From positions 11,878 to 75,877 of the forward strand of contig JALHIN010000005.1 of NCBI GenBank assembly GCA_022839995.1: a stretch of 64,000 nucleotides of DNA. Reading direction: 5' to 3'. Origin of the DNA: Synergistota bacterium. GTDB lineage: Bacteria; Synergistota; Synergistia; Synergistales; 79-D21. Below the pieces are notes generated by a model. That model was not told the origin of the DNA. It ran no database searches and saw nothing but the letters and a program-made list of their open reading frames with translations. Shown here in pieces: positions 2,889 to 24,910 of the stretch. Both the position numbers and the translations under genes were made by a program. Numbering within the stretch: position 1 is the stretch's first letter; the number at the start of each line of letters is the position of its first letter.

Positions 2889-3229
2889 TCCATAAGCCAG
2901 GCTCTCGCGGGCGGGTCTTATGCTCCTCCGGGAACTGCCGGCCGCGCGAGGCGGGCATGAAAACCGGGGTTAAAAGGATAGGCCCGGAAAAGCGCTTTTC
3001 AGGACTTGCTCCAGGGTGACATCCCGGCGAAGTTCTGGATGCTGCTGCGCCAGGTCGCCGTCGCAAAGGTGTTCGATCTGGCTCTCGGAAAGGAAATGAG
3101 GATATGAACCGGTTCGCTTGCCAGGGGCAAAGGGCACTCTTGTCATGGAGCAGGCCTCCCTCGGGAAAGGATAACGGAATGAAGCTTTCCAAGGGAAATG
3201 ATGACAGAAAGAATCCATTTTGTCAACTG

Positions 3230-19563: not shown

Positions 19564-20865
19564 TTGGCAACGGAAAGAAAGATCGTAATCGGGTTCCTGG
19601 CGCTCATCGGCACAGGAACTGTTGCTATTTTATTGCTTAATGCCAATTCACGGCCCCTTACCTTCGTCGATGCGCTTTTCACAGCGACATCCGCCGTTTG
19701 CGTGACGGGGCTTACGGTCGTTGACACCGGAAAGGATCTTACAACCGCTTCTCAGCTTGTCCTCCTGCTGCTGATCCAGCTTGGAGGTCTTGGCGTGATG
19801 ACGGCAACAACTGCTCTTTCCCTTCTGATGAGGGAGAGGATAGGGCTGCGGCAGCGCATGTTCTTTGCCGGGGGCTTCGGGTTGGACTCCCCTTCGGGGG
19901 TGATCCGGCTCTTGATACGGATCCTCTCCCTGACGTTCGCCATCGAGGCGATTGCGGTTTTTCCCCTTTACTGGGGTTTCAGTCGTGCAGGTCTTTCACC
20001 CGAACAGTCCCTGTACAATGCGGTTTTCCACAGCGTGAGCGCCTTCTGCAACGCAGGTTTCTCCCTTTTTTCGGAGAACCTGGAAGGTTTCTCAAGCGGT
20101 ATCCTCGTGCCCGGAACGGTTATGGTCCTTGTCGTATTGGGAGGCTTGGGGTTCATTGTTCTTTCCGAATTGGAGGAGACTTTCCGGGAACCTGCAAGAA
20201 TCTCGGTGCACTCAAGGCTGGTCCTGTTGACGACGGCTGGGCTTGTCCTTTTCGGGACGGCCTTGTTGCTTCTTTGCGAGTGGAATCGTTCCCTCGAGTC
20301 GATGGGGGTGGGGTGGAAGATCTGGAACGCGCTTTTCTCCAGCATCACTCCCCGAACGGCGGGCTTCGACACCGTCGCCCTGTCGACCTTTTCTTCCGCG
20401 GGACTTTTTGTCGTCACCCTGCTGATGATTGTGGGGGCTTCTCCAGGTTCGACGGGAGGCGGGTTCAAGACGACAACACTGGCTGTCCTGCTTGTCTCGA
20501 CATGGAACGTGCTCAAGGGGCGATCGGAAGTCCACTTGTGGAACAGGCGCATTCCCATCCGGGTCATCCAGAGGGCGATCACGATGATTGTCCTCTATCT
20601 TGGTATACTGGGCATAGGATTGATGACCCTGGTATTGCTCGAGCCTTTCCCCTTCCGTTCCCTGCTGTTCGAGACCGCTTCAGCCCTCGGGACGGTGGGG
20701 TTGTCGCTGGGGATCACCTCTCAATTAAGCGATCCCGGCAAGCTTGTGCTCGTACTCCTGATGTTCTGGGGCCGTGTGGGCATTATCACGTTCCTATACG
20801 GCCTCGTGAAGCGTGAGGCAAGAGGAAAGATTTCCTATCCTGATGCGGAAATCCCGGTGGGTTAG
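19564..20865 (+). CDS. ktrB: TrkH/KtrB-family K+ transporter membrane subunit
   Basis: 433 aa with repeated pore-loop motifs (TSAVCVTGL, CNAGFSL, TPRTAGF, SLGTVGLSLG). TTG start. Confidence 0.85.
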   Translation: MATERKIVIGFLALIGTGTVAILLLNANSRPLTFVDALFTATSAVCVTGLTVVDTGKDLTTASQLVLLLLIQLGGLGVMTATTALSLLMRERIGLRQRMFFAGGFGLDSPSGVIRLLIRILSLTFAIEAIAVFPLYWGFSRAGLSPEQSLYNAVFHSVSAFCNAGFSLFSENLEGFSSGILVPGTVMVLVVLGGLGFIVLSELEETFREPARISVHSRLVLLTTAGLVLFGTALLLLCEWNRSLESMGVGWKIWNALFSSITPRTAGFDTVALSTFSSAGLFVVTLLMIVGASPGSTGGGFKTTTLAVLLVSTWNVLKGRSEVHLWNRRIPIRVIQRAITMIVLYLGILGIGLMTLVLLEPFPFRSLLFETASALGTVGLSLGITSQLSDPGKLVLVLLMFWGRVGIITFLYGLVKREARGKISYPDAEIPVG

Positions 20866-20877
20866 GGAGGGAAAAGC

Positions 20878-21537
20878 GTGAAGAACGAGGAGAAAGTCAT
20901 CCTGGTCGTTGGGCTTGGACGTTTCGGACAGGCCCTCTGCAAGACTCTCGTGGAGCAGAAGCACCAGGTCATCGCCGTGGATCGTTCACGGCAATGCGTC
21001 GAGGAAATGGCCGATGTGGTGGATCTCTCCGTCCAGGCGGATGCAACCGACGAGGAGGCCCTCTCCAAGGTTGGAGCCAAGGAAGCCGACATCGCCGTCG
21101 TGGCGATTGGGCAAAACATTGAGGCCAGTATCTTGGCGACAACCATCCTGAAAGACTTCGGGGTATCGCATGTCGTATCGCGGGCGCAAAATGCCGTTCA
21201 TGCCCGGGTTCTTGCCCGGGTTGGGGCCAACCGTGTTGTTTTCCCGGAGCGGGACATGGGGGAACGTCTGGCCTTCCTGCTGGTCCATCCATGGATGTCC
21301 CACTTTGCCCAGTTGCCGGGATCTCGCTTTTACGTGGGAGAAGTCCGGCCCCTGCCCGAAATGGAAGGGAAAACCCTTTTGGAACTGGATTTTCGGACAC
21401 GGTACAATGCGGTTGTCCTGAACGTGAACCGGTCGGGGGAAATGTTCATCCCCCGTGCGGATACGGTGATCGAAGCGGGTGACAGGATCCTCGTCGCGGG
21501 GCTCAGGGAAGACTTGCAGAAATGGGTGGCGGAGTGA
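20878..21537 (+). CDS. ktrA: TrkA/KtrA-family K+ uptake regulatory subunit (single RCK)
   Basis: VGLGRFGQAL Rossmann motif and a C-terminal TrkA-C domain. GTG start with a GGGAGGG SD. Confidence 0.85.
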   Translation: MKNEEKVILVVGLGRFGQALCKTLVEQKHQVIAVDRSRQCVEEMADVVDLSVQADATDEEALSKVGAKEADIAVVAIGQNIEASILATTILKDFGVSHVVSRAQNAVHARVLARVGANRVVFPERDMGERLAFLLVHPWMSHFAQLPGSRFYVGEVRPLPEMEGKTLLELDFRTRYNAVVLNVNRSGEMFIPRADTVIEAGDRILVAGLREDLQKWVAE

Positions 21538-21555
21538 AATGGGAGAACGGGTTTC

Positions 21556-21584
21556 TTGCTTTTTGGGGAAAGGTTGTTTATAAT
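21556..21584 (+). promoter_or_regulatory. near-consensus sigma70-type promoter
   Basis: TTGCTT (21556-21561), 17-nt spacer, TATAAT (21579-21584). Confidence 0.6.
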
Positions 21585-21590
21585 CGTCCC

Positions 21591-21804
21591 AATTTCGTGG
21601 GAGGTGCCTTCATGGCCCGTATGCCTGTTTCGAAAAATTGTTGTTGTCGGTGGATTCTCTCCTGATCCACCGCGGCCCGCAGGGTCGCGGCGGCACCATT
21701 CGCTGCGGCCGGGGCTGCTAGGGCAACCGGTTCCTCCCATAATTAGGAGAACTCCCGTATCGAAAAAGCGATCGGGCTGGCCGCAAGGTCAGCCCGATTT
21801 TTTT
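21591..21804 (+). ncRNA. candidate structured RNA (6S-like rod or cis-regulatory leader of cysE-cysK), class unassigned
   Basis: It starts about 7 nt after the TATAAT. The 5' AAUUUCGUGGGAGG pairs with the 3' CCUCCCAUAAUU (21733-21744). Internal perfect hairpins are CGGUGGAU...AUCCACCG and CCGCGGCCC-GCA-GGGUCGCGG. It ends in an intrinsic terminator. No credible ORF is present. Confidence 0.45.
21771..21804 (+). terminator. rho-independent terminator immediately upstream of cysE
   Basis: atcgggctg-(10 nt)-cagcccgat followed by a run of 7 T. Confidence 0.75.
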
Positions 21805-21828
21805 CGTCTACGAGAGGAGGAGCATCGA

Positions 21829-22527
21829 ATGGGGATTTTCAAAACGCTTGTCGAAGATTTCAAGGCGGTCAAAAAACGAGATCCCGCGATTCCGGGCGGA
21901 GTTCGGGGTTTTTTCGAGGTGATCCTTTGCACTCCCGGCTTTCAGGCCGTGGCGGCTCACCGCCTGATCCATTTTCTTCATGTCCGCCTTCGGATTCCGG
22001 TGCTTCCCCGCTTCCTCGGCCTCATCGTTCGCTGGTGGACGGGGACCGAGATTCATCCCGGAGCCAGGATCGGCAAGGGGGTTTTCATCGATCACGCGGC
22101 GGGAGTGGTTATCGGAGAGTCGGCGGTTGTGGGGGACAACGTAACCCTTTTTCAGGGAGTGACCCTTGGAGCCACGGGCAACGAGAAAACCTGGAAACGG
22201 CACCCGACCCTGGAAACCGGGGTGTTTGTGGGAAGCGGAGCCCGCATCCTGGGGCCGGTCACGGTGGGAAAGAACGCTCGTATCGGGGCAGGAAGCGTTG
22301 TCCTCAAGGACGTTCCATCCAATGCCACGGTCGCCGGCGTTCCGGCTCGGGTCGTCAGATCGGAAGGACAAAGGGTCGCGCCGCCTTTGGAAAAGGCCGA
22401 GGCCAGGATCGAGGCCCTCGAGGGCATGGTTCGGGAACTCCAGCAGGAAGTCTGGAGGCTGCGGGAAGCGACGGTTTTCTGCAGGACCTCGTCCGGGTCG
22501 AAAGAGAAGAAGAGGGGGGTGGCCTGA
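21829..22527 (+). CDS. cysE: serine O-acetyltransferase
   Basis: The MGIFKTLVEDFKAVKKRDPA N-terminus and hexapeptide repeats (GARIGKGVFIDHAAGVVIGESAVVGDNV) identify the family. GAGGAGG SD. The track start at 21556 is spurious. Confidence 0.9.
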   Translation: MGIFKTLVEDFKAVKKRDPAIPGGVRGFFEVILCTPGFQAVAAHRLIHFLHVRLRIPVLPRFLGLIVRWWTGTEIHPGARIGKGVFIDHAAGVVIGESAVVGDNVTLFQGVTLGATGNEKTWKRHPTLETGVFVGSGARILGPVTVGKNARIGAGSVVLKDVPSNATVAGVPARVVRSEGQRVAPPLEKAEARIEALEGMVRELQQEVWRLREATVFCRTSSGSKEKKRGVA

Positions 22528-22528
22528 G

Positions 22529-23455
22529 ATGCGTTTTCGGGTGGATTCGCTGGTGGGTTTTTCCCTTGTGGGAGGAACGCCGATAGCGCGGATCGAAGCG
22601 GGCGGCGGATCGGAAATCTGGGTCAAGATGGAAGGGAACAACCCTGGGGGATCGATCAAGGACCGCGCGGCCTGGGGCATGTTGAGGAAGGCTGAACAGG
22701 ACGGCTTCCTCCGGGAAGGCGCGGTGATCGTCGAACCGACTTCTGGGAATACCGGGATCGCCCTGGCGATGCTGGGAAGGTCCCTTGGCTTGCGGGTGAT
22801 CCTGACGATGCCCGAATCGATGTCTGCCGAAAGGCGGGCCGTACTTTCGGCCTACGGGGCGGAGCTGATCCTCACCCCCGCCGGGGAAGGGATGGGAGGA
22901 GCGGTCAGGAAGGCCGAGGAACTGGTGAGGGAGTCTGAACGATGCTTTATGCCCGGGCAGTTCGATAACCCGGGGAACCCGTGGGCACACCAGGTTACAA
23001 CAGGTCCCGAGATCCTGGAGGCCCTGAAAGGCCAAACTCCCTACGCCTTCGTGGCAGGCGTAGGTACTGGAGGAACCCTTTCAGGGGTTGGAAGAAGCCT
23101 GAAATCGGCCTTTCCCCGTATCCGGATCGTCGCCGTGGAACCGGCGAAAAGCCCCGTCCTCGGCGGCGGCGAGCCCGGGACCCACGGAATCCAGGGGATC
23201 GGCGCGAACTTCGTCCCGAAGAACCTGGACCTCTCCATCGTGGACGAAATCAAGATAGTAACCGACGAGGCGGCTTTCGACACGACTCGGTGGCTGGCCA
23301 GGGAAAAGGGACTTTTCTGCGGGATCTCCACCGGGGCTAACGTCGCGGCTGCCTTCGAGGTCGCGGCAAGGATGCCGGAACCGGGGATCGTGGTCACGGT
23401 TTCCCCCGACCGCGGGGACAAGTACCTCAGCACGGGCGTTTTCGGGCCGGGGTAG
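22529..23455 (+). CDS. cysK: cysteine synthase A (O-acetylserine sulfhydrylase)
   Basis: KMEGNNPGGSIKDRAA (PLP lysine), EPTSGNTGIALA and GVGTGGTLSG motifs. ATG one nt after the cysE stop. Confidence 0.9.
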   Translation: MRFRVDSLVGFSLVGGTPIARIEAGGGSEIWVKMEGNNPGGSIKDRAAWGMLRKAEQDGFLREGAVIVEPTSGNTGIALAMLGRSLGLRVILTMPESMSAERRAVLSAYGAELILTPAGEGMGGAVRKAEELVRESERCFMPGQFDNPGNPWAHQVTTGPEILEALKGQTPYAFVAGVGTGGTLSGVGRSLKSAFPRIRIVAVEPAKSPVLGGGEPGTHGIQGIGANFVPKNLDLSIVDEIKIVTDEAAFDTTRWLAREKGLFCGISTGANVAAAFEVAARMPEPGIVVTVSPDRGDKYLSTGVFGPG

Positions 23456-23458
23456 GCC

Positions 23459-24910
23459 TTATTTTCGCCAGGTCCCGGGGACGAACAGCATGAGCACGGT
23501 GAACAGTTCCAGGCGCCCCAGGAGCATGCAGAGGGAGAGGACCAACTTGCCCGCCTGGGGAACCGCCGCGTAGTTGTCCATCGGCCCTACGATCCCCAGG
23601 CCGGGCCCGATGTTGCCCAAGGTCGCCGCGACGGAGGAGATGGCCGAGACCAGGTCCAGGCCCATTCCGGCCATGACGAGGGAGGCTCCCACGAAAAGGG
23701 TCATGTAGACGAAGAAGAAGACCGCGACGGAGTTCATCGCTTCCCGCTCGACGACCTTGCCGCCGACTCGCGGAACGATCACGGCCCGCGGGTGAAGGAG
23801 CCGAAGGATTTCGGCCTTGGCCTGCCTGGCGAGCAGGAGAACCCGGATGTTTTTCATGCCGCCCCCCGTGGAGCCCGCGCAGCCCCCGATGAACATCAGG
23901 ACCAGGAGGAGCAGCTGCGCGTAGGCAGGCCACCTCTCGAAATCCGCGGTAACGAAGCCGGTCGTGGTCAGGATGCTGACGACCTGGAAGGCGGAGTAGC
24001 GAAGCGCATCGCTAAGCGAGGCATAGGTTTTCCCGGCAAGGAGAACCGTCATGATCGTGGCGGTCCCGAGGAGCGCAACCAGGGCGTAGAAGCGGAATTC
24101 CTCGTCCTTCCAGAAGATCGAAAGGCGCCCGCGGAGCGCGAAGTAATGAAGGGTGAAGTTGGCTCCCGCCAGGAACATGAAGGCGGTGATGATCCAGTCG
24201 ACAAAGGGGCTTCGATAGAAACCGACGCTCAGGCTCTTCGGAGAAAACCCCCCCGTGGCCATGGTCCCGAAAGTGTGAGTGAGGGCTTCGAAAAGGCTCA
24301 TCCCGGCGAACAGAAGGAGGATCGTCTCGGCAACCGAGAGGATGACGTAGACGCCCCACAGGAGGAGGGCCGTCTGTTGGATCCGTGGCGTGAGCTTCTC
24401 CGGCACCGGTCCGGGGACTTCCGCCTTGAACAGCTGCATTCCGCCGACGCCGAGGAAGGGGAGGATGGCCAGGCTTAGGACGATGATCCCCATTCCTCCG
24501 AGCCAGTGCGTCAGGCTTCGCCAGAAGAGGATGCCCCTTGAGTTGGCCTCGATGTTCGTCAGAACCGAGGCCCCGGTGGTGGTGAATCCTGACATGGCCT
24601 CGAAGAAGGCGTCGGTGTAGGTGGAGACCGAACCGTGGAGGTAGAAGGGCAAGGCCCCGATCGCCGAGCAGAGGATCCAGGAAAGGCTCACGACGGCAAA
24701 GGCCTCCCTCGGTCCCAGGTCCGAGGCCTTCGCGTCTCGGCCCAGGCAAAACAGCACCCCCGAAATGGCGAGGCCAACCCCCAGGGAAGCCCCCAGGTCC
24801 AGGAGGTCGGAGGAACCGTCCCAGGCGGCCCACGCCATTCCCCAGAGGAGAAAGAGGGAAACGACGGTCGTGATCAAGCTGAGAACCTTGGCTACGATGG
24901 CGGGGCGCAT
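23459..24910 (-). CDS. trkH: TrkH-family K+ uptake membrane protein
   Basis: 483-aa polytopic protein with TrkH-like pore loops (MSGFTTTGAS, TMATGGFS, TTTGFVT, CAGSTGGGMK). Confidence 0.9.
   Translation of the reverse strand: MRPAIVAKVLSLITTVVSLFLLWGMAWAAWDGSSDLLDLGASLGVGLAISGVLFCLGRDAKASDLGPREAFAVVSLSWILCSAIGALPFYLHGSVSTYTDAFFEAMSGFTTTGASVLTNIEANSRGILFWRSLTHWLGGMGIIVLSLAILPFLGVGGMQLFKAEVPGPVPEKLTPRIQQTALLLWGVYVILSVAETILLLFAGMSLFEALTHTFGTMATGGFSPKSLSVGFYRSPFVDWIITAFMFLAGANFTLHYFALRGRLSIFWKDEEFRFYALVALLGTATIMTVLLAGKTYASLSDALRYSAFQVVSILTTTGFVTADFERWPAYAQLLLLVLMFIGGCAGSTGGGMKNIRVLLLARQAKAEILRLLHPRAVIVPRVGGKVVEREAMNSVAVFFFVYMTLFVGASLVMAGMGLDLVSAISSVAATLGNIGPGLGIVGPMDNYAAVPQAGKLVLSLCMLLGRLELFTVLMLFVPGTWRK

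Follow-up and report, generated by a model that had tools for sequence, protein, structure and literature searches.

A predicted leader-peptide attenuator with consecutive cysteine codons upstream of cysE-cysK in Synergistota

Introduction

Attenuation of transcription by a translated leader peptide is textbook biology for the trp, his, phe, thr, leu and ilv operons of Enterobacteria, with the leaders trpL, hisL, pheL, thrL, leuL and ilvL; Rfam has families for the Trp, His, Leu and Thr leaders. To our knowledge, textbooks do not list cysteine among the amino acids under this type of control. In Firmicutes, cysE and cysES are often controlled by T-box leaders, which bind uncharged tRNA directly and need no translation. 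Here, we describe a leader upstream of cysE-cysK in a 64,000 nt stretch of DNA from a Synergistota bacterium (GenBank assembly GCA_022839995.1, contig JALHIN010000005.1, positions 11,878 to 75,877 of the forward strand). We refer to this whole stretch as the window, and all coordinates are window positions unless a contig is named. The element is very probably an attenuator of transcription that works through a ribosome on a leader peptide, and it would tie cysE-cysK expression to how much charged tRNA-Cys is available.

Three published systems with Cys codons are among the closest to this leader. For Actinobacteria, Seliverstov et al. (2005; PMC1262725) predicted leader peptides rich in Cys, with no terminators. 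Canestrari et al. (2020; bioRxiv 10.1101/834739) showed that leaderless polycysteine short open reading frames (sORFs) of mycobacteria act translationally, by unmasking a downstream Shine-Dalgarno (SD) sequence. Brewer et al. (2021; PMC8632094) described uORFC-8-2, found upstream of cysS in Rhodobacterales and predicted to be a ribosome-mediated transcription attenuator. At the locus described here, a small open reading frame (ORF) with its own SD sequence and a run of codons for the pathway product is combined with overlapping helices and a terminator. This is the anatomy of a classical attenuator. All of the defining features of a ribosome-mediated transcription attenuator that can be tested by sequence are present.

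Results

A short ORF with three cysteine codons precedes cysE

The leader lies within the interval from 21538 to 21828, between a trkH-trkA pair (19564-21537, + strand) and cysE (21829-22527, + strand). The features that define it are as follows.

21599-21604, + strand: leader SD sequence GGGAGG, 7 nt upstream of the ATG; conserved as GGGAGG or GGGGGG across the subgroup alignment
21612-21665, + strand: leader-peptide ORF of 17 codons plus UGA, encoding MARMPVSKNCCCRWILS; relatives retain the frame, the length and the position of the stop
21639-21647, + strand: regulatory codons UGU UGU UGU (three Cys), read from the sequence; Cys runs are found in all sampled Synergistota cysE leaders
21770-21804, + strand: intrinsic terminator identified by folding; 13 bp stem 21770-82/21787-99, loop GCAA, seven U at 21798-21804, about -25 kcal/mol (-24.9 to -25.5)

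The initial annotation of this DNA had reported a transcript with no credible ORF. This was wrong; the ORF starts at ATG 21612, ends at TGA 21663-65 and has its own ribosome binding site. Similarly, what had been described as an A/U-rich unpaired stretch corresponds to codons 6-12 of the ORF, ending in UGU UGU UGU. These three codons specify the amino acid of the downstream operon, cysE-cysK. The leader picks the rare, wobble-read Cys codon. In the long frames of the window that are rich in G or C at third codon positions, 288 Cys codons are TGC and 45 are TGT. The trkH, trkA, cysE and cysK genes together contain nine TGC codons and no TGT codon; the leader uses TGT three times. Rare, wobble-read regulatory codons are typical of attenuators.

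In a 14-sequence subgroup alignment, leader codons 2-9 are highly variable, with no indel or stop among them. From the Cys codons through the terminator, the alignment is almost invariant. This is the pattern expected if the 5' half of the leader is merely translated and the 3' half forms overlapping helices.

The Arg codon that follows the Cys run (21648-21650) is CGG in 26 of 30 leaders and AGG in the other four. The change is synonymous and breaks the terminal pair of helix H1, described below. That a synonymous change should cost a base pair hints at selection on the peptide tail R-W-I itself. Four other runs of three TGY codons occur in the window (at 3040, 3408, 6506 and 41931); they lack a start codon or SD sequence, or lie inside other genes, and none is leader-like.

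The strong terminator recognised initially, 24 nt before the cysE ATG at 21829, was confirmed as a 13 bp stem (21770-21799) with seven T. It separates the leader ORF from the first structural gene. A GC-rich hairpin with a U-run is found at the same position, between leader ORF and cysE, in all sampled lineages.

Cys-codon leaders precede cysE throughout the sampled Synergistota

We compared 12 Synergistota lineages: the window, L001, L002, L081, L084, L085 and L087-L092. In all 12, a short ORF with 3-4 consecutive Cys codons, and then a terminator, precedes cysE. The leader peptides outside the window are listed below.

L001: MVRPVFQSSCCCRWILS
L002: MTRMPVSKNCCCRWIDS
L081: MARASAMKNCCCRWILS
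L084: MARLSVLKNCCCRWIAN
L085 (Acetomicrobium): MGKKSLFFGVCCCRWIAF
L090: MFRSFTVCCCCRWIGKP
L087 (Cloacibacillus-type): MRNIRTGNYVKKDCCCCTFGGKNVRPEVPCP
L088: MARMMKKSAFVTVKTKFCCCCMEDPKG
L089: MKMSREVCTAYIGCCCCTSLDLKIVRPMWSCA
L091: MRANTIVLIGFSLIGCCCAGGCFT
L092: MMIKTFICCAYMLCCCTETAK

Five of these lineages (L087, L088, L089, L091 and L092) have no leader sequence that can be aligned with that of the window. The Cys runs with the residues that follow read CCCRWI, CCCCTFGG, CCCCMEDP, CCCAGGCFT or CCCTETAK, in leaders of which some are mutually unalignable, and outside the run there is no phylum-wide conservation of the peptide. Lineages differ in the genes that lie upstream of the leader (trkA, a glycosyltransferase gene, AhpC on the other strand, glnA, dctM and eamA). 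Hence, the leader travels with cysE. At L090:1437-1445 there is a second run, TGT TGC TGC, between the leader terminator and the cysE start; this could be a tandem second upstream ORF (uORF) or a chance occurrence.

The control set comprised 78 non-Synergistota cysE loci of the same scan, mainly cyanobacterial. No genuine Cys-run leader was found at any of the 78. Two apparent CCC matches (L037 and L062, Chamaesiphon), ~190-300 nt upstream of cysE, were rejected; the matching peptide, SFGCYSCCCQSLVD followed by a stop, is an out-of-frame reading of the 3' end of the gene before it (GCTGCTGCT in another frame). With these two false matches counted as positives the Fisher p value is ~3e-13, a figure that overstates independence because the lineages are related.

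Metagenome contigs were then scanned with the pattern GGTGGATN{6,8}TGATCYACCGCGGC, which represents H1 and the start of helix H2 and does not include the Cys codons. The scan returned 36 matches, of which nine were in unrelated coding sequence and 27 were leaders. All 27 leaders encode C-C/I-C-R-W-I and have an SD sequence and an in-frame start codon; they end in CCCRWIxx and a stop or, in four cases, in CICRWIIS and a stop. Wherever the 3' sequence extends far enough, the leader is located 180-275 nt upstream of a cysE homologue, in the sense orientation, and usually upstream of cysE-cysK.

A variant leader, ending in KTNVCICRWIIS and a stop, was observed in L103:9701-9937(-), L111, L112 and L093. 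It lies upstream of cysE-cysK and has the same H1/H2 core. Cys-Ile(AUA)-Cys replaces the three Cys residues, such that two Cys codons are split by a rare Ile codon, and the start codon is probably GTG.

The leader RNA can form a chain of overlapping helices

The initial proposal of a structured RNA of ~210 nt upstream of cysE-cysK is upheld by folding. Thus, the RNA from ~21585 to 21810, which contains the leader of ~214 nt, folds with -105.6 kcal/mol (z = -5.3), and none of 200 shuffled sequences folds as well. The following helices can be drawn.

21648-21672, + strand: helix H1, 21648-55 (CGGUGGAU) with 21665-72 (AUCCACCG); 8 bp, -11.1 kcal/mol; from the fold, 98% paired
21667-21693, + strand: helix H2, 21670-78 with 21682-90; 9 bp, extendable to 21667/21693, -17.8 to -20.9 kcal/mol; 93% paired
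21672-21718, + strand: helix H3 and its lower extension, 21683-93/21700-10 and 21672-78 plus 21680/21711-18; -33.7 kcal/mol; from the minimum-free-energy fold
21704-21785, + strand: putative antiterminator AT1, 21704-12 (UGCGGCCGG) with 21777-85, which spans the upper part of the terminator 5' arm and the loop; -15.6 kcal/mol; from folding and duplex comparison
21754-21776, + strand: local hairpin AT2, 21754-62 with 21769-76, holding the base of the terminator 5' arm; -9.9 kcal/mol; from folding
21733-21740, + strand: anti-SD-like CCUCCCAU, predicted partner of the leader SD region 21597-21604; from the minimum-free-energy fold

H1 begins at the nucleotide right after the Cys codons, and the leader stop UGA (21663-65) is at its 3' arm. 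H2 has 21667-72 in common with H1 and 21682-93 in common with H3. Since adjacent helices share strands, they alternate and are mutually exclusive. H1, H2, H3, AT1 and the terminator overlap pairwise, and this chain connects the Cys codons with the terminator. All of this is observed: the ORF with its Cys codons, the terminator, and the overlapping helices, together with their conservation. In our model H3 would be an anti-antiterminator, holding segment S4 (21700-21712). Two perfect hairpins had been noted in the initial annotation as parts of a single structure. Both exist, as the 8 bp stem 21648-55/21665-72 and the 9 bp stem 21670-78/21682-90. However, the 9 bp stem includes one G.U pair and the two hairpins share 21670-21672. 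They cannot, therefore, both form fully, and are alternatives rather than two modules of one fold.

Pairing was assessed in a 30-sequence alignment across four sequence subgroups. For H1, 98% of cells are paired, with one-sided changes only (GC to GU, UG to CG). For H2 the figure is 93%, again with changes on one side only. H3 and its extension are 87% paired and five pairs have changed on both sides, which is better than slid controls and shuffles. H3 thus has support from covariation; for H1, H2 and AT1 this support is weak. A duplex equivalent to AT1, of -14 to -23 kcal/mol, is found in all subgroups though their terminators differ (GAUCGGGCUGGCC, AGAGGGCUUUCGC, GGCGGGUUUACCC). The terminator-loop variants GCCAUA, GCCACG, GCCGCA and GUCACG are all still complementary to S4.

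Energetically, the terminator would easily displace AT2 in the absence of AT1. The estimated barrier to terminator formation is ~2 kcal/mol from AT2 alone and ~17 kcal/mol from AT1 and AT2 together. From the latter state the terminator gains only ~0.6 kcal/mol; from the H3 state the gain is ~16 kcal/mol and the barrier ~2 kcal/mol.

The long closing helix described in the initial annotation is present in the minimum-free-energy fold, where GUGGGAGG (21597-21604) pairs with CCUCCCAU (21733-21740). Its core, GGGAG/CUCCC, is conserved in the window subgroup and shows no covariation; the anti-SD-like box is absent from Acetomicrobium-type leaders. We speculate that this closing SD:anti-SD helix might restrict the leader to a single round of translation. 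An SD-like AGGAGA (21745-50) has an anti-SD-like box on either side, CCUCCC (21733-38) and CUCCC (21753-57). Relative to other subgroup members, the window, L099 and L100 have a 3-4 nt insertion near 21733-21757.

Ribosome position is predicted to select between termination and read-through

We modelled the ribosome by deleting the RNA that it covers and then folding what had emerged from RNA polymerase. Plain thermodynamic folds of the truncated leader, including the 5' region, contained the antiterminator in every state and were non-discriminating. They were replaced by folds limited to RNA downstream of the ribosome. The RNA 3' end was set to 21790, at which point the 5' arm of the terminator is out and the 3' arm barely out. 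With the ribosome edge at 21653-21665, equivalent to an A site on the first to third Cys codon, the probability of AT1 was 0.70-0.95 and that of H2 was 0.72-0.97. Conversely, when H1 was allowed to form, or the ribosome was placed at the stop codon, the values were 0.04-0.08 for AT1, at most 0.04 for H2 and 0.89-0.94 for H3. A stall-dependent switch is also predicted in L001, L002, L085, L098, L115 and L087, and is weaker in L088.

The pathway that we propose is as follows. Transcription would begin near 21591, and a ribosome would load at the SD sequence and AUG (21599-21614) and translate the 17-codon leader. When cysteine is plentiful, the ribosome would pass the three UGU codons, reach the UGA (21663-65) and cover the H1 3' arm and segment S2. 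Segment S3 would then pair with S4 to form H3, which would later be extended, such that S4 could not reach the terminator. The 13 bp terminator (21770-21799, with U7) would form and transcription would stop 24 nt before cysE. Without translation, H1 would form, then H3, and the outcome would again be termination. When Cys-tRNA is scarce, the ribosome would stall on 21639-21647 and its footprint would melt the H1 5' arm. The freed H1 3' arm and S2 could pair with S3, forming H2 and leaving S4 free. S4 would then pair with the terminator loop and the upper part of the 5' arm (AT1), which would permit read-through into cysE-cysK. H1 is possibly a pause hairpin, like helix 1:2 of the trp leader. 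The balance of probability lies narrowly in favour of this exact helix-by-helix pathway.

Several points weigh against an attenuator of this kind. We infer, from sequence and folding, the transcription start, in vivo translation, termination, stalling, folding kinetics and the regulatory outcome. The three-state calculation fails to reproduce the switch in L103, L090, L089, L091 and L092. Under stall, H3 is the minimum-free-energy fold at transcript lengths from 21720 to 21782, and the estimated barrier from H2 to H3 is only ~7.7 kcal/mol; it is therefore not assured that H2 lasts until the terminator arm emerges. With the 3' end at 21794 or further on, the terminator is favoured at equilibrium in almost every state. 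Hence, the switch must be kinetic, and in the model the decision would hinge on polymerase speed and pausing. AT1 is the least secure helix. Its shuffle p values, 0.003-0.2, lend modest support, and swapping S4 and terminator between subgroups yields duplexes of similar energy, a control that does not discriminate because the S4 core is conserved. Finally, H1 and H2 contain no compensatory pairs and are conserved rather than proven by covariation; the power to detect covariation is low because the closest relatives are nearly invariant.

Alternative explanations

We considered translational attenuation of the mycobacterial type, in which stalling frees the cysE ribosome binding site from a sequestering helix and the U-run hairpin is of minor importance. 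There is a precedent for Cys codons (Canestrari et al., bioRxiv 10.1101/834739), and the two anti-SD-like boxes in the leader (21733-38 and 21753-57) are possible partners of the cysE AGGAGG at 21815-20. However, predicted folds pair these boxes with the leader's own SD sequence or within AT2, leaving the cysE SD sequence unpaired, and the boxes are absent from Acetomicrobium-type leaders. Furthermore, a canonical GC-rich hairpin with a U-run separates leader ORF and cysE in every lineage, where sequestration of the SD sequence would need no terminator. Nor does the mRNA appear to be leaderless; the SD sequence lies between the end of the -10 element (21584) and the ATG (21612), although the start site is itself a prediction. 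We regard this explanation as very unlikely.

Alternatively, a metabolite riboswitch (sensing cysteine, O-acetylserine or sulfide) or a T-box (sensing uncharged tRNA-Cys) could control the terminator, the short ORF being incidental. Between the Cys codons and the terminator, ~160 nt are near-invariant while CysE proteins are just 76-94% identical, and such invariance exceeds what helices alone strictly need. The region is also strongly structured (z = -5.3), and cysE of Firmicutes is often under T-box control. Against this, an Rfam scan of the whole 64 kb window at the gathering score matched no family, and a covariance scan of 21450-21900, at E<=10 with permissive filters, found no T-box, SAM, 6S or amino-acid leader. 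The sole matches of the permissive scan were noise (E 2-8), to unrelated small RNA (sRNA) models and mostly on the terminator. The T-box model (RF00230; Stem I with specifier loop, conserved T-box sequence) was matched in neither scan, and no covariance model for SAM or another sulfur riboswitch, or for 6S RNA, was matched. The initial inspection, by eye, had matched no signature of T-box, SAM-I, cobalamin, SRP, RNase P or tmRNA. In addition, it is the Cys-codon ORF, and not the RNA core, that is conserved across Synergistota, and an incidental ORF would not retain its SD sequence, frame, stop and Cys run when its 5' half varies so strongly. We consider it very unlikely that a riboswitch or T-box operates here. 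Of the two possibilities raised initially, an attenuating leader or a riboswitch for cysteine biosynthesis, the former holds for cysE-cysK; the sensor, however, would be a ribosome translating three Cys codons rather than a ligand-binding RNA.

Least probable of all is a stand-alone sRNA (6S-like, as the initial annotation had suggested, or other) or a functional gene for a Cys-rich micropeptide that neighbours cysE by chance: the terminated product would be a discrete, stable RNA of 214 nt and the CCCRWI motif is conserved, its Arg codon varying synonymously between CGG and AGG, but no 6S or other sRNA model matches, the element contains a conserved ORF, its position and orientation (always sense, 180-275 nt upstream of cysE) are strictly tied to cysE in every lineage while upstream genes vary, and the peptide outside the Cys run is not conserved across the phylum.

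A second layer could also be added to the attenuator. The near-invariance of ~160 nt, together with a conserved C-C-C-R-W-I tail in which a synonymous Arg change (CGG to AGG) costs a base pair, might point to a nascent-peptide arrest motif, an RNA pocket for cysteine, O-acetylserine or sulfide, or action in trans of the 214 nt RNA or the Cys-rich peptide. Sinorhizobium has attenuator-derived sRNAs and leader peptides that act in trans (PMC7968998, PMC7298713), and its rnTrpL and peTrpL offer a precedent for the last of these. We consider any such layer unlikely.

Promoter and neighbouring genes

The remaining features of the locus are listed here.

21556-21584, + strand: putative promoter, -35 TTGCTT at 21556-21561, 17 nt spacer, -10 TATAAT at 21579-21584; read from the sequence and invariant in relatives
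21815-21820, + strand: cysE SD sequence AGGAGG, read from the sequence
21829-22527, + strand: cysE, serine O-acetyltransferase, 232 aa; hexapeptide repeats, homologues named serine O-acetyltransferase
22529-23455, + strand: gene for a cysK-like pyridoxal phosphate-dependent enzyme, 308 aa; PALP domain, E 2e-72

The promoter had been called near-consensus. This holds for the -10 element, which is a perfect TATAAT, and for the 17 nt spacing; the -35 element, TTGCTT, agrees with TTGACA at only 3/6 positions. For this reason, a consensus promoter scan did not list the TTGCTT/TATAAT pair. We retained it because both hexamers and their spacing are invariant in relatives, where the spacer sequence varies. 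Transcription would start near A21591, giving a predicted 5' untranslated region of 21 nt before the leader ORF and a terminated leader RNA of ~214 nt.

The cysK-like gene starts 1 nt past the cysE stop codon; cysE and cysK are, therefore, likely co-transcribed. The CysE protein assigns the window to Synergistota. Its nearest relatives are encoded on contigs of Synergistaceae metagenome-assembled genomes (86% and 80% identity), and more distant homologues are named Acetomicrobium, Cloacibacillus, Thermanaerovibrio and Aminobacteriaceae. The cysE frame is free of stop codons upstream, across the whole leader to the -35 box (21556-22527). Because homologues begin at 21829, this looks mechanical rather than an N-terminal extension. 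On the far side of cysE-cysK, a 483 aa ORF lies on the - strand (23459-24910). The syntenic ORF in L081 is called TrkH, and so the cysteine genes appear to be flanked by two potassium-uptake loci.

Discussion

Our literature search found no description of a Cys attenuator in Synergistota or on cysE, most subscription journals being outside its coverage. In the screen of Stav et al. (PMC6429828), which included the Synergistetes genome Thermovirga lienii, the main text does not contain 'cysE' or 'cysteine'; the supplements searched have no cysE entry, and their sole mention of cysteine concerns an unrelated Clostridium uORF. A Cys attenuator on cysteine genes is thus apparently new for Synergistota, although the kind of switch is already known. 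To the known Cys cases, which are the translational sORFs of mycobacteria and the cysS uORF of Rhodobacterales, the window would add a terminator-based example on the committed genes cysE-cysK. The example is phylum-wide in Synergistota and comprises several leader types that cannot be aligned with each other.

For annotators, the locus offers a regulatory mini-gene that had gone unannotated. A conserved 'orphan' structured intergenic region can be explained without a new riboswitch, and the leader may be a compact natural sensor of Cys-tRNA charging. The locus also holds a warning for motif searches: where a structured leader lacks an Rfam match, the first thing to look for is a short ORF with codon runs.

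With the cysE T-boxes of Firmicutes, the leader shares the regulated function, the tRNA-Cys charging signal and an output through terminator and antiterminator, the last two being predicted here. It differs in having no T-box match and, instead, an ORF with Cys codons. Like the polycysteine sORFs of mycobacteria, it has consecutive Cys codons upstream of a cysteine-metabolism operon, and in mycobacteria stalling relieves repression. The mycobacterial ORFs are, however, leaderless, with AUG at the 5' end, and have no conserved intrinsic terminators, whereas the window ORF has a predicted 21 nt 5' untranslated region, an SD sequence and a terminator. The uORFC-8-2 leader also combines tandem Cys codons with a terminator stem and U-run. 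It has two Cys codons, at positions 14-15 and within the first stem, and controls cysteinyl-tRNA synthetase rather than biosynthesis; it is found in alpha-proteobacteria and is unrelated in sequence and structure.

The closest likeness in architecture is to the classical attenuators. Both have an SD-led ORF, a run of rare codons for the end product, overlapping helices and a terminator before the first gene, and in both the position of the ribosome chooses between terminator and antiterminator, here by prediction. The codons (Cys), the genes (cysE-cysK) and the phylum (Synergistota) are different, and the window leader has no sequence or covariance-model similarity to any Rfam leader. Moreover, its chain of H1, H2, H3, AT1 and terminator contains one more alternation than the 1:2, 2:3 and 3:4 pairings of the classical scheme.

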